A program made the position numbers and the translations under genes. The notes under the pieces were generated by a model. It was given only the letters and a program-made list of their open reading frames with translations, did no database searches and was not told the DNA's origin. DNA of 64,000 bases from Candidatus Iainarchaeum sp. (GTDB lineage: Archaea; Iainarchaeota; Iainarchaeia; Iainarchaeales; JAXPJC01): NCBI GenBank assembly GCA_016187745.1, contig JACPJC010000001.1, positions 29,571-93,570 on the forward strand, written 5' to 3'. This document shows positions 3,527 through 34,419 of this stretch, one piece after another (position 1 is the stretch's first letter; every line of letters begins with the position of its first letter).

Positions 3527-3883
3527 ATGCCATTACCCAAGAGAGTGGAAGTACTGAGAAACGTAGAGGCAGCAAGGAAGAAGCTCAGATTGTTCAGAAA
3601 AACGAAGCCGTGGAAAGTTATTCAGGCAAGAGACAAAAGTGCGATAAACCTGGCACTTGATTATTTCAGGATAAGGGACATAAAAACAAGAGAGAAAGTG
3701 CACAGGGAGATGCAGCAATACAAGGATCAGCACATAAAATTAAAAAATAGGATTTACACTCCAAGCGCTCTACAGTTTGATGCGCTAGATGGGAAACATT
3801 ATGACACGTTGAATAGGCTATTGCGGGGCAATGCACTTAAATTCGAGATTTCATTCCGGAAGTACCGGAAAAAACTTTATTAA
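3527..3883 (+). CDS. Hypothetical small basic protein
   Basis: A 118-aa ORF in the 740-bp divergent intergenic region. Lys/Arg-rich, with no recognisable domain. Confidence 0.3.
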   Translation: MPLPKRVEVLRNVEAARKKLRLFRKTKPWKVIQARDKSAINLALDYFRIRDIKTREKVHREMQQYKDQHIKLKNRIYTPSALQFDALDGKHYDTLNRLLRGNALKFEISFRKYRKKLY

Positions 3884-4084
3884 TATAATAAATGAAATTC
3901 CAGGCGTGTACCAAAAGCAATTAATAATGCGGATTTGTAATGCCTTCCGCAGGGGCCTGCTTGATTTAGGAGGTGGCTCACCAAGTAAATTTTTTTTGAT
4001 TCAGGCCCCCTGCATTTTCTTTTTTTTTGATTCAGAAATTTGAAAGAAAAGCCTTAAATACAACATTAATTCTCTATATTTCCG

Positions 4085-6496
4085 ATGAAAAGAATCCTGT
4101 TTTTGTTTGCGCTTATGCTTTCATTAGGATTTGCAGGCGCGCAGTTTCCATTTGGGCAGCCGCAAGGCCAGCAGGGGGGCTCTGGATTCCCGCAGCAGGG
4201 ATTCCCCCAACAGCAGGGATTTGGATTTCCCCAGCAGATGCCGCAGCAGCAAGGCGGATTTGGCTTTGGCACAGCGCCACAGCAGGGCTTTGGGTTCGGG
4301 CAGGGCCAGCAGCAGTTTACCCCGCCTACTCCCGGATTTATAGGTATGCCAAGCGGCTTTGAAGCAAGCGCAATTGCACTGCCTCCGCAGTTTCCTTCAG
4401 GCGCTCCAATAAATGAAATGGTTTCAGCACGCATGGGGCAGAAGATATTTGAGAGGTTTGGAACGCAGGAATTAATTTCAATGTGTGCAGATGAGGAAAA
4501 AATGGCTGAAACAATTTATGATTATGTAAAGAGCCTGCAGATGCCTGAGCTGTGCGCGCCGATAAAGGAAGGCCTGCAGAACTGCGAGAAATCGATTGAA
4601 TTCTGCAATGCAATGGGTCAGGGAGTGCCATCTGGAAAGGATGGCAAAGAAATACTGCAGGCATGCCCGCCTGATGAGCAAATTATGAAGCAGATCTGCA
4701 TTGAAAGGAACAGTGAGGACCAGGGCAGGCGCTCTGCTGACTTTGATGAGGATGTTCCACTGCAGTGCGAGCTTGATTGGGAAAGAAATGCAGGAAACTT
4801 CCGGAGAATGTGCGAGCAGAGAAAAATTGAAAAGGAGAGAAAAGAATGCAGGCGCCCGGAGTTTGATGAAAGCTTCAGAAGGGACTGCGGCATGCGCAAT
4901 GGAAGGATTATAGACCGATTTGACCAGTTCGGCTGCGTTTCAGGATGGGAATGCCAGGGCGGAGAATCCTTTGGAAGAGAAACGCCGCAAAGGGCAATAT
5001 GCGGAAATAATTTATGCGAATATCAGGAAAACCCTGACAACTGCCCGGGTGATTGCAGACTTACTGGCGCGAGATGCGGGGACAATTTCTGCGATTCCGG
5101 GAATAATGAGAATTCAGGAAACTGCAGGCAGGATTGCCTGCCGAATTGCGGCGACGGAATATGCGCAGGAATTTCATGCATGTCAACAGGCTGCCCAGAA
5201 AGCGAGAATTCAGCCAACTGCCCGAATGATTGCGAAATAAGGCGCGAGCCCGGCGCAATATGCGGAAATACAATCTGCGAAGCAGGGGAGGATTATGGGA
5301 ATTGCGCCTCTGACTGCCAGGCGCCTGTAATAACAGAGGAGCCATTTGTCGGGCAGCCGGCTTCAACCGAAGAAACAGAGCCTTCAACAACAGAAATCGC
5401 AACTTCAACAGAGGCTGCAACAACCACTACTGAAACAACCGCAACATCAGCAGAAACCGGAACTGCAACAACTGAAACAGCAGCAACAACCACAACAACC
5501 GAAACCACAGCCCCCGCTGCAACAACAGAGCCGGCGCCAGAAGCTACAGCAACAACTTCCACAAAAAAGAGAGTTAATATTTATAAAATTTATATGCAGG
5601 GGTTTGGCTATCCGCAGCCAATGGCTCCGCAGCAGCCGATGCAGCCGCAGGGCTTCGGGTTTGGAATGCAGCAGGGCTTCGGGCAGGCGCAGGGAAATGA
5701 AGCCAATGCGCAGGACTTCTGCGACAAGGATTCATATATCCGGAGTTGCATGGGCAGGATGGAGGAGCAGTTCAACCAGCAGTTCCAGGAAACCAATGTT
5801 GACAGGATATGCGAGCTTGAGGCAAAACTGAACAAGAACCAGATGGCAAGGTTCTGCAAGCAGATGGAGCAGGGAAAAGACGATTGCAAAAAGCACGCAG
5901 AAGACGGATGCAAATTCATAGAAAAACAGCTCGGGAAATGCCAGGAAATGTCATCAGAAGAAGGCATAAAATCAATAATAGAAGAAAAGGCGCACGAGGG
6001 ATGCCTGTTCATCAAGATGCAGCAGTCGCAGTTCAGCGGATTCGGCCTTCCGTTTATGCAGCCCCAGGCGCTTCCGCTTGATTCGCAGATATTCAATACT
6101 GTTTCAGCGCTTGCGCAGAGCGAAAACATGCTTACAGGGGAGTATGCCCCGTGGCTTTCAGGCGAAAGGGGCAGGCTTGTGGATGTTGCGGAGGATGTTG
6201 GAAAGGCAGAGGCGAATGAGAAATCAAAAGATTTGATTTACCAGATAACAAAATTCTTCGGCATGCAGAAGGAAAAGGAACTGAAGGAAGCGAAAGCGCT
6301 GGAGAAACAGACTGAAAAGCTTGAAAAAACAATTGAGAATCTGAAGGCGCTTGCAGAGCAGATGCCTGATGAGAGCACAAAAACAGCGCTTGAAGAGAGC
6401 ATCAAAGGGCTGGAAGAGCGCATGTCCGAGCTGCAGGCAATGGTGCAGTCCAAGGAAGCAGGCGCAGCAGGCATAATGGGAATATTCGGCGGATGA
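4085..6496 (+). CDS. Secreted low-complexity protein: signal peptide, FG/Q-rich repeats, Cys-rich DUF4215-like repeats, Thr/Ala-rich stalk, second FG/Q-rich region, C-terminal coiled coil
   Basis: - Signal peptide MKRILFLFALMLSLGFAGAQ.
- About 90 aa of GFPQQ/QGFGFG repeats.
- Four repeats of CG(N/D)xxCExxExxxNCxxDC (nt ~4997-5345).
- TEETEPSTTEIATSTEAATTTTETTATS... linker (nt ~5340-5580).
- Second MQGFGYPQP...QGFGFGMQQGFGQ region.
- Two 8-Cys helical domains.
- Heptad-rich C-terminus ending GAAGIMGIFGG. Confidence 0.8.
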   Translation: MKRILFLFALMLSLGFAGAQFPFGQPQGQQGGSGFPQQGFPQQQGFGFPQQMPQQQGGFGFGTAPQQGFGFGQGQQQFTPPTPGFIGMPSGFEASAIALPPQFPSGAPINEMVSARMGQKIFERFGTQELISMCADEEKMAETIYDYVKSLQMPELCAPIKEGLQNCEKSIEFCNAMGQGVPSGKDGKEILQACPPDEQIMKQICIERNSEDQGRRSADFDEDVPLQCELDWERNAGNFRRMCEQRKIEKERKECRRPEFDESFRRDCGMRNGRIIDRFDQFGCVSGWECQGGESFGRETPQRAICGNNLCEYQENPDNCPGDCRLTGARCGDNFCDSGNNENSGNCRQDCLPNCGDGICAGISCMSTGCPESENSANCPNDCEIRREPGAICGNTICEAGEDYGNCASDCQAPVITEEPFVGQPASTEETEPSTTEIATSTEAATTTTETTATSAETGTATTETAATTTTTETTAPAATTEPAPEATATTSTKKRVNIYKIYMQGFGYPQPMAPQQPMQPQGFGFGMQQGFGQAQGNEANAQDFCDKDSYIRSCMGRMEEQFNQQFQETNVDRICELEAKLNKNQMARFCKQMEQGKDDCKKHAEDGCKFIEKQLGKCQEMSSEEGIKSIIEEKAHEGCLFIKMQQSQFSGFGLPFMQPQALPLDSQIFNTVSALAQSENMLTGEYAPWLSGERGRLVDVAEDVGKAEANEKSKDLIYQITKFFGMQKEKELKEAKALEKQTEKLEKTIENLKALAEQMPDESTKTALEESIKGLEERMSELQAMVQSKEAGAAGIMGIFGG

Positions 6497-6514: not shown

Positions 6515-7000
6515 TTATCCATCGCGTCTGATTTTCGCAAGTCTGGACTCATTATCAATGGCATTTTGCAACTCAAACATCTTAGCCCCTAAAGAATCAA
6601 CCAAATCCTTTGCAGCCTTCCATTCTGCAGGGTTATCACTAGAGTTTATTTTCAGTAAGTTAGCATTGGCAGCCTTCAATTTCTTTTTTATTCTGCTTAA
6701 TTCTTCAAGCTTGCCAGGAGAATAGTTCTTGTGCATTGCTATGATGCCCAATGCATCGTTTGCAGCGTTTTTTGCTATAAATATCTTCCCCCTAGCTCTT
6801 GTAAAATGTTTAAATTTACCTTGTCTGATAGCCCTATCAAGTATCCCCACAACAGTGCTTTTAGCTAAATTACATTCCACACTAATTGGCTCTACAAATG
6901 CCCATAAAGGCATATATCCCTCGGGCGCTTTTACCCGCCCAGATACCCTCCCTCTTACAAGCATCCTTCTTTTTACAGGCATAAAAACCACGTTATGCAT
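6515..7000 (-). CDS. Hypothetical protein, paralog A of a tandem pair (basic N-terminus, C-terminal coiled coil)
   Basis: 161 aa. Its C-terminal half KNYSPGKLEELSRIKKKLKAANANLLKINSSDNPAEWKAAKDL... aligns with KGYSLEESRELAKLKKSLRKANEELVRINSDQRLKMQNPAKWTAEQD... of the adjacent gene. Confidence 0.6.
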   Translation of the reverse strand: MHNVVFMPVKRRMLVRGRVSGRVKAPEGYMPLWAFVEPISVECNLAKSTVVGILDRAIRQGKFKHFTRARGKIFIAKNAANDALGIIAMHKNYSPGKLEELSRIKKKLKAANANLLKINSSDNPAEWKAAKDLVDSLGAKMFELQNAIDNESRLAKIRRDG

Positions 7001-7010
7001 AACCCGTGCT

Positions 7011-7514
7011 TCAATATCTAAGCCTTTTTAATTCAGCCTTCACTGTAAGATTCTTTTCCATCTCATTTATGCTTCCGCCAAGCTTATAAACCTCTTTTTG
7101 CGCAGCATCCTGCTCCGCAGTCCATTTCGCAGGATTCTGCATCTTAAGCCTCTGGTCTGAATTAATTCTTACTAATTCCTCGTTTGCCTTTCTCAGCGAT
7201 TTTTTTAGTTTTGCCAGCTCCCTGCTTTCTTCCAAGGAATAGCCTTTGTAACGTTCAACATACGCCTCCAAAGCACTTTCAGGCACGAGGAGATATGGCT
7301 TTTTTCCGACAAAAACCCTTTTCACCCCGCTGAGTTTGCCTAAAAAGAACTCAATACGTTGCCTATCCGCTTCCAAACCGTGTGTCATAGCCAGTTTATG
7401 CACAAACATATCGGTTGTAAGGTATCCCTTCCGGGCCAATAGCTTATTCTTATTTACTCTCTTTATGCCGCGGGCTGCATATTTTCTTATCAGAGGCCTG
7501 CCCGGTTTTTTCAT
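7011..7514 (-). CDS. Hypothetical protein, paralog B of the tandem pair
   Basis: 167 aa. Basic N-terminus MKKPGRPLIRKYAARGIKRVNKNKLLARKG. Shares the C-terminal coiled-coil block with 6515..7000. Confidence 0.6.
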   Translation of the reverse strand: MKKPGRPLIRKYAARGIKRVNKNKLLARKGYLTTDMFVHKLAMTHGLEADRQRIEFFLGKLSGVKRVFVGKKPYLLVPESALEAYVERYKGYSLEESRELAKLKKSLRKANEELVRINSDQRLKMQNPAKWTAEQDAAQKEVYKLGGSINEMEKNLTVKAELKRLRY

Positions 7515-7523
7515 AATGCTTGC

Positions 7524-10418
7524 CTACCCCGCAATCCCTATGTAAAATTTTCTTGCAATAAGCGGCTCCATTTCATGCGCGCCTTGTTCAGTTCTGAGTT
7601 TCGTGTTTGTTTCCTTCTCAATTGCGCCCCTGTATTTCTGCAGGAATTTTTCATCATCGCAGTCAATTATCAATTGCGCCTTTTGTTTTGGGAGAAGCTT
7701 CATTTCCTTCCTTTTCTCCTGTATGCGCCTGAGCAACTCGCGCAATTCCCATTCTTCTTTTAATTTATCATCCGCATCCAGGTTAAGGTAGATTGTTATT
7801 TCTCCAATTTGCGCTTTTGCATAATTTCCTTTTGGCTCTTTCTTAATTTCATTCGCCTTCTTCACATTGCACGCGACTTCAAGCATTTTTTTCACTTTTG
7901 AAAGCTCCTTCCCCGACTTTGTTTTTATTGCCAATTCAAGCAAAGGCCAGCGGAGCTTCAATTTATTCTGCTCCCTCAGCGCAAGCGCTGCCTGCGTAAT
8001 TTCCTTCGCAAGCGCAAATTCCTTCTCCAATTCCAAATCAACCAGTTTCTTATTCGTTTCAGGGAACTGCAATAAATGCAGGCTCTCGGGCATTTTTCCC
8101 GAGCGCAGATGCAGGTACAGGTATTCAGTAATGTGCGGCGCAATCGGCGCAAGCAATTTAAGCAAGGAAATTATTGCAGTCCCGATTGTATTTTCAACAG
8201 CGCCCTGTGTTTTTGTCCCTATCCTTTCCTTTACGTGCCTTATGTAGGTTCGGCTCAAATCCTCCATAACAAAATTCGTTATTGCGCTGCACGCCTTCGG
8301 ATAATCATAGGACTTGTATGCATTTGTTGCCTCTTCAATCAATGAATTAAGCCTGCTCAGGAGCCATTTGTCCTCAATCTGCAATCCCTTTGCGCTTATT
8401 TTCCCCCTGTGCGCGGTTTCAGGCTTCAATTGCAAATACATTTCCGCGAAATTGAAAACATTCCAGAATATCCCGAAGAACCTGTTCAGCTCGTTGAATT
8501 CCTCAACATCAAATATCAAATCCTCGCCTTTTGAGGTTGATGCCAGATAAAAGCGCAGATAATCGCGGTTGTATTTTTCAATCACCTCAGAAGGCTGCAC
8601 GATATTGCCAAGGCTTTTTGACATTTTTTTCTTTCCCATTCCCAGAACCATCCCATGAACCGCAATTGTCTTGTAGGGCGCCTTGTCAAATGCGATTGTT
8701 GAAAGTATCAGTTGGGAGTTCCACCATCCGCGCACTTGCTCGGTTGCCTCAATGTTCAAATCAGCGGGCCAGAATTTCCTGAATTGGGAAGAAGACTGGG
8801 GGAATCCAAGCGCCGCCCAGCTTGAAACTCCTGAATCAAACCAGACATCAAGCACCTCAGGAACCCTTCTCATTTCCCCTCCGCAGGAACATTTTATTTT
8901 AATCTCATCAATCCCCGGCTTGTGCACATCATTTATTTTCTGCCCTGATAATTTTTCCAGTTCCTCAATTGAGCCGATTACAGTTCTCTTTCCGCATGAA
9001 TTGCAAACCCATATCGGGAGCGGGGTTCCCCAGTAGCGCGCGCGGGAAACAGGCCAGTCGCCCAATTGCTCTAACCAATTTTTCATCCTGTCCTGCATCC
9101 ATTCCGGCTTCCAGGCAGTTTCTGAATTCAGCCCAAGCATCCTTTTCTGTATGCCTGAAACCCTGAAAAACCATTGCGGCAATGAAAGCATCAGCAGCGG
9201 GCTCTTGCAGCGCCAGCATATCGGATAATCATGCGTGTAAGCGTGCTTTAGAACAAGCGCATTTTCAGATTCCAAATCGGAAATTATTTCGGAATCCACT
9301 TCCCTTGCCTTTTTGCCTGAGTATTTTCCCGCCTCTCCGGTAAGAAGGCCGTTTATTGCAACAGGGCTCGGCATTGGAAGTTCATTTTTCTTCCCTTCCT
9401 CATAATCCTCCTTCCCGTGCCCCGGGGCGCAATGCACCAATCCGGTTCCTTCCTCCAGATTCACATAGCGCTCTGACATTATTACGCGGTATGCGCTCTT
9501 CAGTTCAGCATCGCCCAAATTCAGATTTATGTTTTTTGCAAGCGGGCTCTCATAATGCAGATTCTGAAGTTCCTTCCCCCTGAATTCCCTTTTTATTGTG
9601 TATGCTGCCTCAATGGAATCCATGAGCTTCTGCGCCAGTTCCTTTGCAACAATCCATGTTTCCCCGTTGCTTAACTCCAGTTCAACATACTCATGCTGCG
9701 GATGCACCATGACCCCGGTATTTCCCGGTAGCGTCCACGGGGTAGTGGTCCATACAACCAGATATTTGTTATTTGTGCCACTTACTTTGAATTTAACATA
9801 AATGCTGTTGTCGGTCTGTTTAGTGTATTCAATTTCATTATATGCAACGGCAGTTTCGCATCTCGGGCAGACATGCACGGGGTATTTTCCCAGATAAAGA
9901 AGGCCTTTCTCCTCGGCTTTCTTGAAGGTCCACCAAATCGCCTCAATGTAATCATTGCTGAGCGTGAGGTAAGGGTTTTTCCAGTCCATCCACACCCCAA
10001 GATTCTCAAATTCAGCATTCATCACATCAATGTAGCGCGTCGCGTATTCCTTGCATTTCCCAATGAATTTCCCAACACCAAATGTTTCAATGTCCTTCCT
10101 GCTTTTTGTCCCAAGCTCCTTCTCAATCTGGAATTCAATAGGAACCCCGTGCGTGTCATAGCCCGGGCGGTCAAAAACATCAAATCCCTGCATGCGCGCA
10201 GCGCGCATTGCAATATCCTTGAGGATTTTGTTCAGCGCAGTTCCCATGTGTATGTGCCCTGTCGCATATGGGGGGCCATCCATGAAATAGTATTTCTTCC
10301 CGGATTTCGCATTCCGCGCCCTTGCCTTCTCGGGAATCTTCCTCTCCTTCCAGAATTTATGCACTTCCTCTTCCTTCTGCAGGGAATAAGGCTCAAGCGC
10401 TTTCTGTTTTTCAGCCAT
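7524..10418 (-). CDS. ileS: Isoleucyl-tRNA synthetase
   Basis: 964 aa. Class I HIGH motif (PPYATGHIHMGTALNKILKD), GYDTHGVPIE (IleRS-type, compare GWDCHGLPIE), KMSKS (KKMSKSLGNIV), and a CxxC zinc knuckle. Confidence 0.85.
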   Translation of the reverse strand: MAEKQKALEPYSLQKEEEVHKFWKERKIPEKARARNAKSGKKYYFMDGPPYATGHIHMGTALNKILKDIAMRAARMQGFDVFDRPGYDTHGVPIEFQIEKELGTKSRKDIETFGVGKFIGKCKEYATRYIDVMNAEFENLGVWMDWKNPYLTLSNDYIEAIWWTFKKAEEKGLLYLGKYPVHVCPRCETAVAYNEIEYTKQTDNSIYVKFKVSGTNNKYLVVWTTTPWTLPGNTGVMVHPQHEYVELELSNGETWIVAKELAQKLMDSIEAAYTIKREFRGKELQNLHYESPLAKNINLNLGDAELKSAYRVIMSERYVNLEEGTGLVHCAPGHGKEDYEEGKKNELPMPSPVAINGLLTGEAGKYSGKKAREVDSEIISDLESENALVLKHAYTHDYPICWRCKSPLLMLSLPQWFFRVSGIQKRMLGLNSETAWKPEWMQDRMKNWLEQLGDWPVSRARYWGTPLPIWVCNSCGKRTVIGSIEELEKLSGQKINDVHKPGIDEIKIKCSCGGEMRRVPEVLDVWFDSGVSSWAALGFPQSSSQFRKFWPADLNIEATEQVRGWWNSQLILSTIAFDKAPYKTIAVHGMVLGMGKKKMSKSLGNIVQPSEVIEKYNRDYLRFYLASTSKGEDLIFDVEEFNELNRFFGIFWNVFNFAEMYLQLKPETAHRGKISAKGLQIEDKWLLSRLNSLIEEATNAYKSYDYPKACSAITNFVMEDLSRTYIRHVKERIGTKTQGAVENTIGTAIISLLKLLAPIAPHITEYLYLHLRSGKMPESLHLLQFPETNKKLVDLELEKEFALAKEITQAALALREQNKLKLRWPLLELAIKTKSGKELSKVKKMLEVACNVKKANEIKKEPKGNYAKAQIGEITIYLNLDADDKLKEEWELRELLRRIQEKRKEMKLLPKQKAQLIIDCDDEKFLQKYRGAIEKETNTKLRTEQGAHEMEPLIARKFYIGIAG

Positions 10419-10493
10419 CTTGATTCACTTGAAACTTCTTTTTTCTTTGGGTAATACCTAGACTTTCTTTTTTGTAAAAAGAAAGGATTGGTG

Positions 10494-10568
10494 TGGGCAT
10501 GGAGGGATTTGAACCCTCGACCCTTGGCTTATAAGACCAATGCTCTGACCAGGCTGAGCTACACGCCC
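10494..10568 (-). tRNA. tRNA-Ile, anticodon UAU
   Basis: The reverse complement GGGCGTGTAGCTCAGCCTGGTCAGAGCATTGGTCTTATAAGCCAAGGGTCGAGGGTTCAAATCCCTCCATGCCCA folds as a 75-nt cloverleaf. Acceptor stem 7 bp with one G-U, D-stem GCTC/GAGC, anticodon stem TTGGT/GCCAA, loop C-T-TAT-A-A, T-stem GAGGG/CCCTC with T-loop TTCAAAT. Confidence 0.8.
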
Positions 10569-19876: not shown

Positions 19877-21604
19877 ATGCAATCCATGGCGGGATTGCCC
19901 TGGGGCAAGTTTGAAAAAAGGCTGAAGAAAACAGGCTATTGGAAGATTGCCATTGCCGCTGTTGTTGCAGTACTGGCGGTTGCGGGCTTTCTGATTCTGG
20001 GCGGTTTTTTCGGGGGGCAGCCCCCCGCTTCGGAAGGGATTTCCGCAGAGGTTTACAAAGCGGTGAATGAGCTGAAGCACCCCGATGTCATTGCGCAAAC
20101 AAATTTAACGCAGGAGGATGTGTTGGCTGCCTTTGGCGAGGAGGACGAATTCTACACAGTGCTTGAGCTTGCAGGGTATTTGGGCTATCAGGACCTTCTG
20201 GGCACTGTCAGGACAGATTACAAAGACGGGAACGCCATTACAGTTGGCATGCTTGCAAATTCAGGCGGCAATGTTATTTTCATTGAAAGGCTTGAAGCGC
20301 CGGGATACAGCAAAACACTCCTGATAAGCTATACGGATGAGGAGCATTACACAATATTTGATGCAGAAGGGGGAATTAAGAGGAATGGCGCAGATTTTAC
20401 TAAACTTGGAAAAGAGGATATCCTAGGGATTTCCCTTGAAGGCGGAATGAATCCAAGCAAGGGCATTCTTGCGCCCGATATAATCCGCTTTGGTTTTTGT
20501 GATGAGAAAGGCGGGGGCTTCTGGGACTGCATATGGGAAAATAAATGGTCCCTTGGCCTTTCCGTTGTAGGCGCGATTGCCGCATGCATTGGCTCAGGAG
20601 TCGGCGGCGCATTTACTGCTGTAACTGCCGGACTATTTACTCCTGCGGAAATTGCCCTGGTTCTTGGCTGCATCGGGGCAGGCGGTTCGGCTTTAGCAAT
20701 TATAGGTGACTGCTCGCTGCGGTCGGCAGACAATGCCCCAAGTGTTGATGCATTCAGCCAGATAACCGGCGATTGCTACAAATGCATCAGCAACAAAAGG
20801 ATGAAGCTCAAGGAGGTTACAATTACCGGAAGCGTTGAGGACGACAGGCAGCCCAATCCCACATGGAGTGAGCCAAACGCGTCTGGAAGTGTTGCTGTGT
20901 GCGACACAGGGGATTACATTGAGAGGTTTACTGCAGTTGACTGCGGGGGCAATAGCGTGAGCGAGTATGAGGAAATAACGCTGCCAGAGCCTGAACTTGC
21001 CTCAGAGCAATGCGTTGGCGGCGATGGCTGCTGCCCATCGGGCTGCACTGAGGACAATGACAACGACTGCATTGGGGAGTGCGGAAACAATGCTGCTGAA
21101 GGCTCTGAAGAGTGCGACGGCCCTGACTTGGGGGGCAAAGACTGCAAAAGCATTGGATATGCCCCGGGCGCCCTAACCTGCACTGCGGATTGTAAGCTTG
21201 ATGCTTCAGGCTGCGGCAATTGCTGGACTGATGCAGACTGCGATGATGCGAATGCATGCACCGATGATGCGTGCGCTGATTTTACCTGCAAAAACACCCA
21301 GAAGGCTGACTGCTGCACAAAAGACGCTGACTGCGATGATGGCGATTTATGCACAACAGATGTGTGCAATGCAGGCAACCGCTGTGAAAATACTACAACA
21401 ACAACCTCCCCGGGCTACGGCTCCCCGCAGTCTGGCAGCGACTGCGGCGCTTGCGCAGGCCTTGGCCTTGAATGCAGGGAAGATTTCTATGCGCCTGGCT
21501 ACTATGGCTGCTGCCCGCAGAACTACTGCCTTGTTGACAGCTTCTGCCAGCCCGAATGCACACTTGTAGACGGAAAAATATGCAAGAGCGGCTCATGGAC
21601 TTAA
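19877..21604 (+). CDS. Membrane-anchored extracellular protein with C-terminal Cys-rich (DUF4215/Myxococcus-type) repeats
   Basis: 575 aa.
- N-terminal TM anchor YWKIAIAAVVAVLAVAGFLIL.
- Gly-rich hydrophobic segment in mid-protein.
- C-terminal ~200 aa with CGNNAAEGSEECDGPDLGGKDC and DADCDDANACTDDACADFTC / DADCDDGDLCTTDVCNAGNRCEN repeats. Confidence 0.75.
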   Translation: MQSMAGLPWGKFEKRLKKTGYWKIAIAAVVAVLAVAGFLILGGFFGGQPPASEGISAEVYKAVNELKHPDVIAQTNLTQEDVLAAFGEEDEFYTVLELAGYLGYQDLLGTVRTDYKDGNAITVGMLANSGGNVIFIERLEAPGYSKTLLISYTDEEHYTIFDAEGGIKRNGADFTKLGKEDILGISLEGGMNPSKGILAPDIIRFGFCDEKGGGFWDCIWENKWSLGLSVVGAIAACIGSGVGGAFTAVTAGLFTPAEIALVLGCIGAGGSALAIIGDCSLRSADNAPSVDAFSQITGDCYKCISNKRMKLKEVTITGSVEDDRQPNPTWSEPNASGSVAVCDTGDYIERFTAVDCGGNSVSEYEEITLPEPELASEQCVGGDGCCPSGCTEDNDNDCIGECGNNAAEGSEECDGPDLGGKDCKSIGYAPGALTCTADCKLDASGCGNCWTDADCDDANACTDDACADFTCKNTQKADCCTKDADCDDGDLCTTDVCNAGNRCENTTTTTSPGYGSPQSGSDCGACAGLGLECREDFYAPGYYGCCPQNYCLVDSFCQPECTLVDGKICKSGSWT

Positions 21605-30504: not shown

Positions 30505-33500
30505 TCAGCGCTTTTGCGCGTGGAAAAAAGGCCTTGAAGGCATCCTTTGCTTTGAGAGCCTGAGGGCAAGGGCAAACGCAATAATGATAACAAGAGCCAG
30601 CAGGCCCAATCCCAGTGAAGGGCCCAAAGCAAACAATCCCACAAGCGCGCCCTCAGGGGATTCCTTTCCCGCGGCGGATTCCCTTACATAGAGAACCATG
30701 GGCTTTTCCGAAACATACTTGTCGCTTGCGGCCCTGAGCGTCAATCCCCAATCCCCAATTCCCGCATTTGATGCGAGTTTTATTGTTCCAATTGCGGTAA
30801 TTGTTGAATTCGCATCAACGTTCCCTGTGTCTATCGAATTAAAGTAAATGTTGCCCGGCAATCCCTCTATTGAAATGCTGATGTTTGTTATTTTCTCGTT
30901 TGTCGGGTTTGTTATTATGAATGTGAGCTGCTGCTCCGCGCCCTGGTTCAAATCAATTACTTGCGGATAGCTCTCAATGCGCAATACATTCTCCTGCAGT
31001 ATCCTCTCCGAAACAACTTCAAATGCAATGGCAATCTCCTTTGTTGCGTATGCGCCTGATGCTTTGAGCGTTATGCTTTTTGCCCCGGCATTTGCGTCCG
31101 CTGAAACATCAATCTTTATGCTAACCTGCTTGGAGTTTCCCGCATTCAGGTATATGTTTGAGTCTGAAAGCGCAGCGCTTATTCCGTCATAGCCCTCTGA
31201 AACCGAGAGCGTGTAATCCTCGCCGTAATCCCCTATGTTCTTAACAAGCGCGTAAAGCTCATCGGCAGAATTGCGCTTTATCTGCAGGCCGGGGTTCAGT
31301 GCGCTTAATTCCGTTGCGTGCGCATTTGCGACATTTATGCACACTATCCTTTTCGCATAGGATTCCGCATCATAGGCAAACAATTCAATGTTATGGGTTC
31401 CTGCAGAACTCCCAAGCAGAGTTGTTATTTTGACTGAATTTGAGTATGTTGAGCCGCCCTCAATTGAGAATGCGGAAGTTTTCACTTCGGAAATAAGGTC
31501 CCCGTCCGCGGTCGCATTTATTGAAAGTTTTTCATCGGAGATGTTCCCTACGCTGAACGGAATTTCCATTGAGGAGTTCTTGTTCATGTCAATGCATCCG
31601 GCATTCACATCAAGCGTGAATTCCGCAGCCTGCGTTTCAGCGCAGTCAATCACATTGAAATATATGTCCTCCCTAACGGAGTTGTTTCCCAGAAGCGCGG
31701 TTGCCGCAATCTTGTAATTGTCAGCGATTTTTGTTGTTGAATTTGTCCTTATTGCAAGTTCCGCATACTGCTGGCTGCCTGTTGGCAGCAATAAATTGTC
31801 AGGCGAAAAATACGGAAGGAACATTTCGGATTCCGCCTTGAGCACAATCGCATTCTGGTCATAGTAGTTGTTTTTCAGGAGCACGTTTATTTTTCCTGTA
31901 GAGCCCCTGCATATGCTTGCTGTGCTTGCGCTCAATTCAACTGCGGGAGTCTGCTCGATTCTAACCCCGATAATGCTTGAAACGCTTTCTGTTGCCGAGG
32001 CGGAATAGGTTGCGGTAAATGTCGCGCTATAGCCCCCATAAACTGCATCGCTCGTTGCGCTTATTCCCAAAGAAACAGTGCTCTGCTCATTTCCGTTAAG
32101 GCACAGGGATGATGTATTAAGGGCTGTTTTCACATACGGGCTGCTTGAGCTTGCGCTAAAGGTCATGCATATTTTGGAACTGGAAGTGTTTTTTACCGTG
32201 AAGCCCGCGCTTTCATTATCCCCCTTGTCAAGCTCATAATTTATGAATATCGCATCCAGGTCTATTTTTGTGAGGCTTTCCTTTATATTAATGTAATAAT
32301 TATAGGGTTCGCGGTTTGCGCCGTAATCAAGGTTCAATGTTATGCCGTATTTTCCGACTGCGGCAGAATCCCCTGCGCTTACAGCCAATGATACCGCTGT
32401 TGAGGAATTCGCATCAATGCAGGGGTTGTTGGGGGAAGCGCTTGCCGAAATTGCGGAATCCGTGCTCTGCGCAGTTATCAGCGGGCATATCTGCGACGCC
32501 GAGTTGTTCTTTATTGTCACGCTTGCGCCTGACTGCTCCCCAATCTCAACATCAAGTTCTGAAGGTGAGAACTGCACTGAAAAATTTCCGATTACATTCA
32601 CATTGAAGCTTGCATTTGCATAAAAGCCCCCGGAGTCAGTAACCCTCACAGTTACGGTATTCGTTCCCAGGGAATTTGCATCCGGCGCAGCGCAGCTCAC
32701 ATTCTGGTTCGAGGTTATTGAGCAGTTCAGCAGATTTGAATCGCTCTGCGAAACAATTGTGAATGCCAATTGCGCGTCTGCGCTTTCCGCATCGCTAGCA
32801 TATGCCCATAAATCAATCAAATTCGCCTGCGCGCCTGAATTGACTAAAACATTCCTGTCGGGCAGCGCAGAAATCTGCGGGGCGGTATTCGCAAGGACAG
32901 TGAAGCTCCAGCCCGCGCTTGAGTAATTGCCAAGGGAATCAGAAGCAGTAATTGCCGCATCAACCTGCTGATTGTAGGCAAATTGCGCGCTTGGGGTAAA
33001 TGTAACAGCGCCATTGTTATAGCTCAACTGGGAATTTGCAAGAGTGTAATCGATCCCTTCAACAGCCATTGTGATGGAATTTATATTGATGCCTGAAGCA
33101 TCGCTCAATTGCGCGCTTATGGGCTGCATCAGGTTAGTGCTTATTGACCCGTTTGCGGGATTAAAGTTTGCTATTGCCGGCCCTGTGTTGTCAATGGCAA
33201 AATTGCCGTCGCTGTAGCCGGTTATTGTTTCATAGCCGATTATTCCATCGCCCATATCAACAGTGCCGGTAATGCTCACATCAAGGAAGTAATTGCCGTC
33301 TGCGAAGCCGCCTGTTGATGAATAGGAAGAGCATGCAAACGAATTTCCTGAACTGTCGCAGTTGGATGGGTCATACATGTCAAAATCTGAAAACACTACA
33401 TAGCTGTAGCCGTTGCTGATGTTTGCATCATTGTCAAGGTAAATGCCCGCCCCGTTCAAATTAGGCCCTATGCCTTCGGATGTGAAGTATGCGGAAAGGC

Positions 33501-34419
33501 TGCTGCTGAAATATATCCCCGAATAGGGATAATCAACCTGCACGCTCTGCGCATTTGCTGAAGCGAGCATGAAAATTGCAAGGAACAAAATTGCGGCATA
33601 GTGGATTTTCTTCCCCTGCGCCCTGTGCACAAACCTCGCAATGAAGGAAATCAGCAGAAGCGCCGCAACTATTGCAAGCAGTATGTCAAGCGCAAGCTCC
33701 GGGCTTATTTTCGGGAAAAGCGCAGCAAATCCCGCAATAGCGCCCTTGGCATCGTATTTCAGCGCAATCCTCTCGGAATGCCCGAAGCCAAGCGCGGAGA
33801 ATTTCAGCATTGCATTCCCGTCAAATGAGCTAGCAGGCCTGAGAAGTATTGTCTGGGTTCTTGTTTCAAGCGCAGGAATCTTCAATTTGAATGTTTTCGG
33901 GCTCACATTCCAGTCCGAGGGAATGCCTTCAATCCCTGAAAATTCCAATTCCATATCCTGGACTGTTTTGTTGTATGCGGTAACATCAATCCAGAATGTG
34001 TTTTCGTCCCTGCCAACATTATAATTCGAATTCAGTGTAACCTTTGCCGGGAAATCATCAAGCGCATAGAATTTAAGGGTTATTTCCCTTGTTTCAATAT
34101 TGCTGCCAAGGGAAACCTGCAGGTTCGCCTTCTGCTGTATTCCCACAAATTCAGTTTTCGGGTAAAGCAGCATTTTTATTCCGGCGGATTTGTTCGCGTC
34201 AATTGAAGCCGGAAGCGCGCCTTCAATCTCATAATCAATCGGCGCAAAGAGCTTCACTCCCAGCGTTTGCGCAGTTGCATAATTGTTTGTTACTGTAAGT
34301 GTAAGCTCTTCAGGCATCTGGTTGAACTGCACTACGTTGTTAACTGAAATCGCAGCGCTTGCGCTCAGCGCCAGCAATAGCGCAAAAAGCAATACTGCAA
34401 TAATCCTTACCCCGAACAT
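30505..34419 (-). CDS. Large cell-surface protein: apparently two secreted modules in one frame, each with a signal peptide and a C-terminal TM anchor
   Basis: 1304-aa ORF.
- Signal peptide MFGVRIIAVLLFALLLALSASAA.
- TM anchor plus basic stop-transfer at aa ~245-270 (ILLAIVAALLLISFIARFVHRAQGKK).
- Immediately after it, a second signal-peptide-like segment IHYAAILFLAIFMLASANAQS.
- Final C-terminal anchor LLALVIIIAFALALRLSKQR.
- Abundant N-glycosylation sequons. Confidence 0.7.
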   Translation of the reverse strand: MFGVRIIAVLLFALLLALSASAAISVNNVVQFNQMPEELTLTVTNNYATAQTLGVKLFAPIDYEIEGALPASIDANKSAGIKMLLYPKTEFVGIQQKANLQVSLGSNIETREITLKFYALDDFPAKVTLNSNYNVGRDENTFWIDVTAYNKTVQDMELEFSGIEGIPSDWNVSPKTFKLKIPALETRTQTILLRPASSFDGNAMLKFSALGFGHSERIALKYDAKGAIAGFAALFPKISPELALDILLAIVAALLLISFIARFVHRAQGKKIHYAAILFLAIFMLASANAQSVQVDYPYSGIYFSSSLSAYFTSEGIGPNLNGAGIYLDNDANISNGYSYVVFSDFDMYDPSNCDSSGNSFACSSYSSTGGFADGNYFLDVSITGTVDMGDGIIGYETITGYSDGNFAIDNTGPAIANFNPANGSISTNLMQPISAQLSDASGININSITMAVEGIDYTLANSQLSYNNGAVTFTPSAQFAYNQQVDAAITASDSLGNYSSAGWSFTVLANTAPQISALPDRNVLVNSGAQANLIDLWAYASDAESADAQLAFTIVSQSDSNLLNCSITSNQNVSCAAPDANSLGTNTVTVRVTDSGGFYANASFNVNVIGNFSVQFSPSELDVEIGEQSGASVTIKNNSASQICPLITAQSTDSAISASASPNNPCIDANSSTAVSLAVSAGDSAAVGKYGITLNLDYGANREPYNYYINIKESLTKIDLDAIFINYELDKGDNESAGFTVKNTSSSKICMTFSASSSSPYVKTALNTSSLCLNGNEQSTVSLGISATSDAVYGGYSATFTATYSASATESVSSIIGVRIEQTPAVELSASTASICRGSTGKINVLLKNNYYDQNAIVLKAESEMFLPYFSPDNLLLPTGSQQYAELAIRTNSTTKIADNYKIAATALLGNNSVREDIYFNVIDCAETQAAEFTLDVNAGCIDMNKNSSMEIPFSVGNISDEKLSINATADGDLISEVKTSAFSIEGGSTYSNSVKITTLLGSSAGTHNIELFAYDAESYAKRIVCINVANAHATELSALNPGLQIKRNSADELYALVKNIGDYGEDYTLSVSEGYDGISAALSDSNIYLNAGNSKQVSIKIDVSADANAGAKSITLKASGAYATKEIAIAFEVVSERILQENVLRIESYPQVIDLNQGAEQQLTFIITNPTNEKITNISISIEGLPGNIYFNSIDTGNVDANSTITAIGTIKLASNAGIGDWGLTLRAASDKYVSEKPMVLYVRESAAGKESPEGALVGLFALGPSLGLGLLALVIIIAFALALRLSKQRMPSRPFFHAQKR

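Follow-up and report, generated by a model that had tools for sequence, protein, structure and literature searches.

The 64,000-nucleotide stretch of DNA analysed here (the window; contig JACPJC010000001.1, Candidatus Iainarchaeum sp.) contains, at 4085..6496 on the forward strand (+), a complete open reading frame (ORF) that runs uninterrupted from ATG to a TGA stop and encodes a protein of 803 amino acids (aa). Behind a predicted signal peptide, this protein combines two low-complexity regions (LCR1 and LCR2) rich in Gln and in Phe-Gly (FG) motifs, two Cys-rich helical domains, referred to as A and B, a block of four Cys repeats, a Thr-rich segment, and a C-terminal helical module (C-module) ending in a short hydrophobic tail. 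Its conserved core appears to define a protein family undescribed so far and apparently confined to DPANN archaea.

An intact gene of a Diapherotrites archaeon

The window protein is 100% identical to the public protein P0001, whose 90%-identity cluster mate, MBI2529558.1, comes from a metagenome-assembled genome of a Candidatus Diapherotrites archaeon. The NCBI gene model begins 10 codons downstream of the ATG at 4085, which leaves the signal peptide truncated. Two orthologues, P0002 and P0003, are 822 and 845 aa long; they share 63-66% identity with the window protein (BLASTP) and are collinear with it end to end, and their genes are syntenic, lying, as in the window, between those of deoxyhypusine synthase and isoleucyl-tRNA synthetase (IleRS). 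The length differences among the three orthologues are all in frame and all confined to low-complexity segments. In the window, the neighbours are archaeal housekeeping genes, coding for deoxyhypusine synthase, AdoMet decarboxylase, IleRS, an Ssb-like OB protein, the thermosome and a tRNA-splicing endonuclease.

Because of its low-complexity DNA, the locus also contains several long ORFs in other reading frames, and an artefact could take the form either of a composite of frameshifted fragments, as the preliminary description of this DNA had envisaged, or of low-complexity sequence read in the wrong frame. The full-length collinearity of P0002 and P0003, the in-frame length differences restricted to low-complexity segments, and the recurrence of each ordered domain in dozens of distant homologues rule out an artefact of either kind. 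The 803-aa ORF is an intact, conserved gene of a Diapherotrites (DPANN) archaeon, in line with the archaeal origin that had been assumed for the protein.

A family with a conserved core

The relatives of the protein were sought by a HMMER scan of 1.84 billion cluster representatives, the query being aa 536-803 of the three orthologues. The C-module was found in 113 representatives at E <= 1e-3, 48 at E <= 1e-10 and 15 at E <= 1e-30. The nine matched clusters that carry an organism name are all archaeal, seven belonging to a DPANN phylum and two being labelled only 'archaeon'; the named sources are Diapherotrites/Iainarchaeum (including the closed AR10 genome), Micrarchaeota, Nanoarchaeota, Aenigmarchaeota and unclassified archaea. 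The search for homologues in DPANN genomes that had been suggested thus yielded a family present in at least four named DPANN phyla. One further locus, in a GTDB genome whose record is titled Diapherotrites, also carries a family member. A scan of GTDB genomes with ortholog-specific peptides gave no locus, and a narrower alignment gave two. Word-index homologue searches returned no match for domain A and one for the C-module, and missed the protein's own orthologues; these nulls were taken to reflect the limited sensitivity of the tool, since the exhaustive HMMER scan found 113 representatives.

Neither the whole protein, nor its sub-domains, nor 30-65 family members matched any Pfam, NCBIfam or PHROGs family consistently; against Pfam, the window protein hit five families at E <= 1 (hmmscan), none of them nucleoporin. 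A scan of viral contigs found no relatives. Neither the family nor its signature was found described in the literature. According to Castelle et al. 2021 (PMC8204110), many of the families specific to DPANN are still without characterisation, with a predicted extracellular or membrane location; the present family fits this published generalisation, and the text consulted there mentions neither it nor its architecture.

In the window protein, the family hidden Markov models (HMMs) recognise domain A at aa 99-270 (E 2e-53), domain B at aa 545-642 (E 1.5e-29) and the C-module with its tail (E 1.5e-48), so that the four core elements are present in order. The core conserved in the family consists of two related Cys-helical domains, a four-helix C-module and a basic-flanked Gly/Phe/Leu tail. 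At every locus examined, the family gene is single-copy and stands among housekeeping genes; five distant members are flanked by ribosomal-protein, RNA-polymerase, RFC and topoisomerase genes.

Domain A covers aa 96-300 (4370..4984, +), with an HMM core at aa 99-270, and holds conserved CPP and CE..W motifs. Its HMM matches 77 proteins, and its Cys are near-invariant in 65 representatives. It was first described as an 8-Cys helical domain; the count is corrected here to 12 Cys (aa 134-290). AlphaFold2 (AF2) predicts helices at aa 109-176, 198-209 and 227-253. Domain B (aa 545-642; 5717..6010, +) contains eight Cys, each conserved at >= 90% in 65 representatives, in the spacing C-x8-C-x20-C-x14-C-x9-C-x7-C-x9-C-x20-C, close to the commonest arrangement in the family, C-x8-C-x(18-21)-C-x14-C-x9-C-x7-C-x9-C-x(19-20)-C. 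It includes a twin Cx9C motif at aa 591-619 (C591-x9-C601-x7-C609-x9-C619), which 52 of the 63 domain-B segments of the family share, the spacer being 7 residues long in every case. Domain B is helical in the AF2 model, at low confidence.

The two domains had been thought to result from a duplication, and this holds at the level of one Cys-helix unit. When profiles built from A only and from B only were compared (hhalign), aa 197-262 (copy 1; 4673..4870, +) aligned with aa 547-604 over 56 columns, with a probability of 90% and an E-value of 1.6e-6; direct BLASTP gave E 0.022. This profile alignment indicates that domains A and B are homologous via a single duplicated Cys-helix unit.

The family-defining C-module spans aa 665-790 (6077..6454, +), the part matched by the 113 representatives. 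It harbours a K-D/G-x-x-Y-x3-F-[FL]-G-[ML] motif at aa 715-727 and a helical hairpin (aa 725-759 and 763-800), and its long C-terminal helices (712-759 and 763-800) follow an a/d heptad pattern and end in AGAAGIMGIFGG. The family consensus begins with a variable helix, the sequence K-[GD]-x-x-Y-x3-F-[FL]-G-[LM] and a long helix, and closes with a conserved Asp turn, a second long helix and K-x-K-x-A-x-G-[IL]-[FL]-[SG]-x-[FL]-G before the end of the protein. Full-length AF2 modelling with three sequences gave a mean predicted local distance difference test score (pLDDT) of 41.6, only the C-terminal helices being usable; for the C-module alone and an alignment of 40 sequences, AF2 returned a four-helix bundle with pLDDT 86 and a predicted template-modelling score of 0.78. 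A long oligomeric stalk of the tetrabrachion type would have an uninterrupted heptad register; of the C-terminal coiled coil formerly proposed, the heptads stand, but they are split by a conserved Pro/Asp turn, and the AF2 model, which is that of a monomer only, packs the helices into an intramolecular four-helix bundle. Searches of the PDB gave no match for one profile (alignment A1), and for two others (A4 and A5) only designed or generic coiled coils and one match to a low-complexity linker.

The C-terminal Gly/hydrophobic tail corresponds to aa 791-803 (EAGAAGIMGIFGG; 6455..6493, +). The ending GIMGIFGG, already pointed out in the preliminary description, was confirmed, and a tail of the form G[IL][FL]xxFG recurs across the family. 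Its Gly, conserved at 96%, is followed by the protein end at a median distance of 10 residues; the tail measures 7-14 aa, of which 73% are G, L, F or I, and the preceding eight residues contain 28% Lys. The protein ends at most 5 aa after the C-module match in 66 of 114 proteins. The last 19 aa of the window protein have a mean hydropathy of 0.70, and no more than 12 of them are hydrophobic or small residues. At the family level, the tail thus has the features of a membrane-targeting sequence (MTS), namely a short terminal segment, too short for a transmembrane (TM) helix, with a basic flank. No archaeosortase/PGF-CTERM signal was matched in NCBIfam, and there is no TM anchor at the C-terminus. 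Their recurrence marks the C-module and the GIMGIFGG-type tail as the hallmark of an apparently DPANN-wide family, rather than an accident of one sequence.

With regard to export, a Sec-type signal peptide is predicted at aa 1-19 (4085..4141, +) from hydropathy and conservation. It consists of MKR, 13 hydrophobic residues (ILFLFALMLSLGF) and AGA, followed by Q after the predicted cleavage site, and it forms the top hydropathy window of the whole protein, as expected for the signal peptide originally reported. The N-terminal hydrophobic segment is kept in the orthologues, and a comparable hydrophobic N-terminus is found in 60 of 76 full-length family representatives. The window protein contains 38 Cys in total, and the conserved Cys of the family come in even numbers, all eight of domain B being conserved at >= 90%. 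This pattern fits disulfide-stapled helical hairpins and therefore suggests an extracytoplasmic protein; the Kazal and thioredoxin domains present in a few family members only were likewise counted in favour of export. Taken together, these sequence features make it almost certain that the protein is exported. N-x-S/T sequons are absent from its 803 aa, against 3.6 +/- 1.7 expected from the composition, and glycans, if the protein is glycosylated, would probably be O-linked on the Thr-rich segment only.

Lineage-specific modules

Domains A and B occur in this order in 63 representatives, separated by an insert of 20-415 aa containing 0-30 Cys; in the minimal members, where A and B directly abut, it measures 20-38 aa. 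This hypervariable insert accommodates three of the modules of the window protein, namely the four Cys repeats, the Thr-rich segment and LCR2; LCR1 lies outside it. Comparison across members indicates that all of these modules, LCR1 included, are lineage-specific additions, outside the conserved core.

The Cys-repeat block (aa 306-411; 5000..5317, +) is formed by four 4-Cys units of the type CG[ND]xxC-x(8-10)-C-xxDC. The four repeats noted at the outset were recovered as C-G-[ND]-x2-C...E...N-C-x2-D-C units starting at aa 306, 331, 355 and 393, the third with two extra Cys. Among the orthologues, 79% of the columns of the block are invariant and none is gapped, a conservation on a par with that of the core, which makes the block a better candidate for a specific binding surface than the FG/Q regions, and indeed the likeliest one judging from conservation. 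Neither the whole protein nor aa 296-415 alone matched DUF4215 or TIGR02232 at E <= 10 in Pfam or E <= 1 in NCBIfam, and the proposed relationship found no support in these profile searches; for the repeats, no family of Pfam or NCBIfam was hit even at E 10. Nor do the repeats recur, as had been claimed, in the protein encoded at 19877..21604, for which BLASTP gives an E-value of 0.096 at best, and the repeat pattern, written as a regular expression, matches no other ORF of the window. The 575-aa product of 19877-21604 (+) contains 40 Cys and an N-terminal TM segment, and its Cys-rich repeats are of other types (CGNNAAEGSEECDG... and DCDDxxxCTxDxC); this product matches nothing in Pfam or NCBIfam and is unrelated to the repeats of the 803-aa protein.

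The Thr/Ala/Glu/Pro-rich, mucin-like segment occupies aa 413-495 (83 aa; 5321..5569, +) and is composed of 39% T, 19% A, 16% E and 8% P. In the three orthologues, it measures 83-103 aa with 39-48% T and a similar overall composition. At the DNA level, Tandem Repeats Finder detects only a weak 9-bp array at 5461-5505. The segment is low in complexity and Thr-rich, as in mucin-like sequences, with O-glycosylation probable, and the Pfam Mucin match of the window protein reaches only E 0.19. Of the earlier view of a stalk of about 70 aa, the segment itself holds, and the term stalk is doubtful: the segment sits in an insert that measures only 20-38 aa in minimal members, and may therefore be a loop leaving and re-entering the compact core.

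LCR1 (aa 20-95, 76 aa; 4142..4369, +) is an uncharged region recognised by its composition and dipeptide counts. It contains 28% Q, 25% G, 17% F and 14% P, with one charged residue in 76, and its F are spaced every 2-12 residues. Its Q/G/F/P-rich FG character is as first described, but its length is 76 aa and not about 90. The FG/GF dipeptides number 16, compared with 6.5 +/- 2.1 in composition-preserving shuffles (2.5x), and none of 5000 shuffles reaches 16. Among the three orthologues, LCR1 varies from 71 to 94 aa with 37% gapped columns, and its composition remains steady (Q 23-28%, G 24-27%, F 15-17%, P 14-15%, charge essentially nil). Its pLDDT in the AF2 model is below 30. LCR2 (aa 496-540; 5570..5704, +), followed by the 8-Cys domain B, corresponds to the second FG/Q region and second Cys-helical domain formerly distinguished; it contains nine aromatic-Gly dipeptides where 2.5 are expected (z = 4.9), and is also indel-rich among the orthologues, the gapped columns of the low-complexity regions amounting to 37-38%. 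A short Q/F/G/P linker at aa 646-664 (QQSQFSGFGLPFMQPQ...; 6020..6076, +), with 79% invariant columns in the orthologues and a pLDDT below 50, connects domain B to the C-module.

FG/Q or aromatic-Gly regions are present in all three close orthologues, where the enrichment of FG motifs reaches z = 4.5-6. Across the family, aromatic-Gly adjacency exceeds that of composition-matched shuffles (p < 0.01) in 12 of 31 regions. Under a strict criterion, a G/P/Q + F/Y region lies right after the signal peptide in 11 of 63 members and right before domain B in 9 of 63; under a loose one, at least one aromatic-Gly region is found in 27 of 76 representatives and two in 10 of 76. Tandem Repeats Finder detects no DNA tandem repeat in LCR1 or LCR2, and they are therefore not fresh slippage products. 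Between lineages, their composition drifts from Q-rich to G/P-rich, with sequences such as PGFGG, GGYG or QGFG. The FG/Q segments are genuine FG-motif regions, not compositional noise. The possibility that they are drifting spacers absent from homologues was thus answered in part each way: their composition is steady in the three orthologues, but they are absent from most relatives and drift between lineages. They are therefore selected for composition and motif and recur, yet they are evolutionarily labile accessories, outside the conserved function of the family.

Flanking sequences

A TATA-like box, TTAAATA, is read directly at 4054..4060 (+), 31 nt upstream of the ATG. The block AAAGCCTTAAATA..ATTCTCTATA at this box is invariant across the three orthologous loci, and the box suggests that the gene is transcribed separately, with a leader that is very short or missing. 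Just upstream, 3905-4013 (+) forms a non-coding element about 110 nt long, after which a T-run extends to about 4035. The element is near-invariant in the three orthologous loci, its conservation exceeding that of the coding sequence, while the surrounding small ORF calls lack conservation. The element folds as a hairpin with an 8-bp GGGGCCUG/CAGGCCCC stem and upper stems, then oligo-T; it has no Rfam match at E <= 1, and could represent either a gene for a small RNA or a regulatory element acting in cis. A direct repeat, TTTTTTTTGATTCAG, is present at 3990-4004 and 4021-4035 (+), close to the promoter, its first copy being inside the conserved hairpin element. The small upstream ORF at 3527..3883 was rejected as a partner gene for lack of conservation in the orthologous locus (E 41).

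Downstream, on the opposite strand, the gene is adjoined by two tandem paralogous small ORFs, 6515-7000 (-) and 7011-7514 (-), which code for 161 and 167 aa (mutual BLASTP E 2e-10) and match nothing in Pfam or PHROGs; the orthologous loci contain ORFs of comparable size in the same downstream position. Beyond them, a tRNA-Ile gene with the anticodon UAU (10493-10568, -) is located directly upstream of the IleRS gene (7524..10418, -). In most archaea, AUA is read by an agmatidine-modified CAU tRNA, and a UAU tRNA-Ile has been reported in a few reduced archaea, such as Nanoarchaeum. Further away, 30505-34419 (-) encodes a 1304-aa protein with Big_5, NPCBM_assoc and cadherin-like matches, a more conventional candidate for an S-layer (surface layer) or adhesin-type surface protein of this organism.

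Proposed function and alternative explanations

We propose that the 803-aa protein is an exported, disulfide-stabilised cell-envelope protein of a DPANN family. To this explanation taken as a whole, including anchoring by the tail and outward-facing cohesive FG/Q modules, we give a probability of roughly 0.45, and it should be regarded as tentative. After export, disulfides would staple the helical domains, and the four-helix module, together with a tail resembling the MTS of MinD, would hold the protein on the outer face of the membrane by interfacial, non-spanning insertion, oligomerisation possibly helping this attachment. The variable modules would project outward; in this Diapherotrites lineage, these would be two uncharged FG/Q regions, the strongly conserved block of four Cys repeats and a Thr-rich loop, probably carrying O-linked glycans. 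The FG/Q regions may act via their composition, as cohesive or elastic segments in which aromatic-Gly 'stickers' promote self-association or adhesion. Judging from composition and motif, a hydrogel or adhesion role of these regions is plausible; the formation of a hydrogel or condensate in this organism and a role in episymbiosis, which the preliminary description put forward, are conjecture.

Several observations weigh against this proposal. All nine named clusters (9/9) are annotated as 'hypothetical' or 'uncharacterized protein', without a functional name. AF2 gives no confident model for domains A and B, and fold searches with the C-module return only generic helical bundles, Foldseek yielding no match at E <= 0.001. 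With regard to the tail, the similarity to the MinD MTS concerns a 10-residue motif and is not homology, and the tail of the window protein, with one Lys nearby and low amphipathicity (hydrophobic moment 0.23), resembles the MinD MTS less than the tails of other members do. The FG/aromatic-Gly regions are missing from most members, including, at position 1, the next-closest P0007 and P0008, and are replaced in some members by acidic segments; any cohesive function is therefore not the core role of the family. Synteny is limited to the close orthologues, no neighbour being conserved among the five distant members, and the genomic context consequently gives no functional clue. Finally, a shortened C-module stands alone in an ORF of the Candidatus Diapherotrites archaeon CG08 (PEXL01000013.1; locus L005, 5767-6429, +), whose product of about 190-220 aa keeps only the last Cys of domain B and lacks a signal peptide, like the representative P0022. 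Such a form may be a remnant, or a separately expressed module able to act in the cytoplasm.

The FG/Q and Thr-rich segments could instead be passive flexible or elastic spacers, in the manner of entropic bristles or of elastomer-like linkers such as those of abductin, resilin or glutenin, with no part in cohesion or adhesion and with all specific function residing in the folded Cys domains and the C-module. We consider this unlikely, although it agrees with the abundance of gaps in the LCRs even among close orthologues, with their absence from most members and replacement by acidic segments in others, and with the drift from Q-rich to G/P-rich composition between lineages; a composition rich in G, P and aromatic residues is, moreover, typical of elastomeric proteins. 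What a mere spacer would not require is FG adjacency beyond that given by composition (z = 4.5-6), nor the near-total exclusion of charge and a composition kept within a few percent in three orthologues, nor a region of the same type at the same two positions in several DPANN lineages.

Two further explanations concern the protein as a whole. Most DPANN archaea do not synthesise lipids and cytoplasmic bridges to the host occur in some DPANN, and the family is apparently DPANN-wide and single-copy among housekeeping genes, with a conserved hydrophobic Gly-rich terminal segment next to a helical hairpin; it might thus be a membrane-active device for host interaction, in which the bundle opens and the Gly/Phe/Ile tail, similar to a fusion peptide or an MTS, enters the membrane of the partner, leading to bridging, fusion or the extraction of lipids that DPANN archaea are unable to produce. 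This is improbable, given that neither Foldseek nor the PDB profile searches revealed significant similarity to a fusogen, a pore-former or a lipid-transfer protein, that no relatives occur on viral contigs or in PHROGs, that the tail is C-terminal and only 7-14 aa long, and that Diapherotrites are not established episymbionts. More improbable still is an architectural rather than interactive role, as a structural subunit of the cell envelope, either S-layer-associated or part of a sheath or matrix. The predicted signal peptide, the probably O-glycosylated Thr-rich region and the conserved single-copy gene in core-genome contexts would be in keeping with it, as archaeal S-layer glycoproteins often pair a Thr-rich segment with a C-terminal anchor. 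However, the predicted fold is all-helical and disulfide-stapled, whereas archaeal S-layer proteins are beta-rich or Ig-like, the sequons expected for N-glycosylation are missing altogether, neither a TM nor a PGF-CTERM anchor is present, and the protein encoded at 30505..34419 is a more typical surface-protein candidate in the window.

Returning to the exported envelope protein that we favour, its interest lies in the question of how DPANN archaea, largely uncultivated and mostly host-dependent, attach to partner cells and exchange material with them. An odd ORF becomes a searchable family, with a Cys-spacing signature, a four-helix module and a G[IL][FL]xxFG tail, and its presence in at least four named phyla, at single-copy loci and in housekeeping contexts, recommends it as a concrete candidate for a role in the envelope or in cell contact. 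Recurrent aromatic-Gly modules on an exported prokaryotic protein would offer a test case for FG cohesion outside eukaryotic cells. In its boldest form, the proposal describes a DPANN surface protein whose stapled core and inserting tail engage the cell's own or the host's membranes, and whose FG domains in several lineages would constitute the first prokaryotic extracellular FG phase. This is a long shot; if true, that phase would form a gel, selective or adhesive in nature, on the surface of the cell or where symbiont and host meet. If the modules are mere spacers, a new uncharacterised domain family remains, which would be of moderate interest.

Comparison with known systems

The twin Cx9C motif of domain B recalls the CHCH proteins of the mitochondrial intermembrane space, with which it shares C-x9-C-x7-C-x9-C in predicted helices. 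However, only one of 30 domain segments matches the Pfam CX9C model (E 1.8e-4), which does not suffice to place domain B in the CHCH family; it also differs by its four further conserved Cys and by its location in a large multidomain protein. In the same way, the Cys repeats resemble the Myxococcus-type DUF4215/TIGR02232 repeats, which are short, Cys-rich, start with CGNG or CGDG and occur in secreted proteins, but the unit found here has four Cys, C-x4-C-x8-10-C-x3-C, and lacks the EECDDGN core.

Membrane attachment through a short C-terminal segment has precedents on both sides of the membrane. The periplasmic PBP5 has an amphipathic C-terminal anchor. Many family tails, of the form ...KKAKGLFGLFG or ...KGLLRLFGLFG, share with MinD a Lys-rich flank and G-[ILF]-[FL]-x-x-[FL]-G at the C-terminus, the MTS of E. 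coli MinD being KGFLKRLFGG (PMC5471200). This likeness is one of short motifs only, MinD acts on the cytoplasmic face, and the window tail (AGAAGIMGIFGG) has little basic flank.

As for the FG/Q regions, the closest parallel in character is with the cohesive FG domains of nucleoporins (GLFG domains of Nup98/Nup100/Nup116). Like them, LCR1 is disordered, uncharged and Q/G-rich, with FG every 2-12 residues and enriched adjacency, and so has the enriched FG motifs in a disordered, low-charge spacer by which FG nucleoporins are recognised. The nucleoporin-like character previously attributed to the protein is therefore upheld by motif enrichment, but not by Pfam, in which the window protein has no Nucleoporin_FG match. 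The protein is also prokaryotic, predicted to be exported and devoid of a pore- or scaffold-anchoring domain, and its LCRs are only 76 + 45 aa long and absent from most homologues. F (17%) and P (14%) are higher in LCR1, and S/T much lower, than in GLFG domains, and the composition of the FG/Q regions lies between those of the cohesive GLFG nucleoporin domains and of gluten- or abductin-type elastomeric proteins. The elastomeric and cohesive repeat proteins comprise high-molecular-weight glutenin, gliadins (PQQPFPQQ), abductin (GGFGGMGGGX), resilin and flagelliform silk. They are extracellular and similar in composition (GFPQQ and QGFGFG here, PGFGG and GGYG in other members), but their repeats are long, regular and in tandem, whereas the LCRs of the window protein are short, irregular and free of repetitive DNA.

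The sole described precedent that we found for an adhesive FG sequence outside the cell is trophinin, a metazoan membrane protein whose extracellular FG-repeat domain has been proposed to mediate homophilic cell adhesion (PMC8311347). Both carry FG-rich low-complexity sequence on the extracellular side; there is no homology between them, trophinin being an animal integral membrane protein with decapeptide repeats, and for trophinin too, adhesion through the FG domain is hypothetical. In kind, an exported surface protein with low-complexity and Cys-rich modules is thus not unprecedented; what is new is the domain family, its terminal tail and the extracellular modules of FG type.

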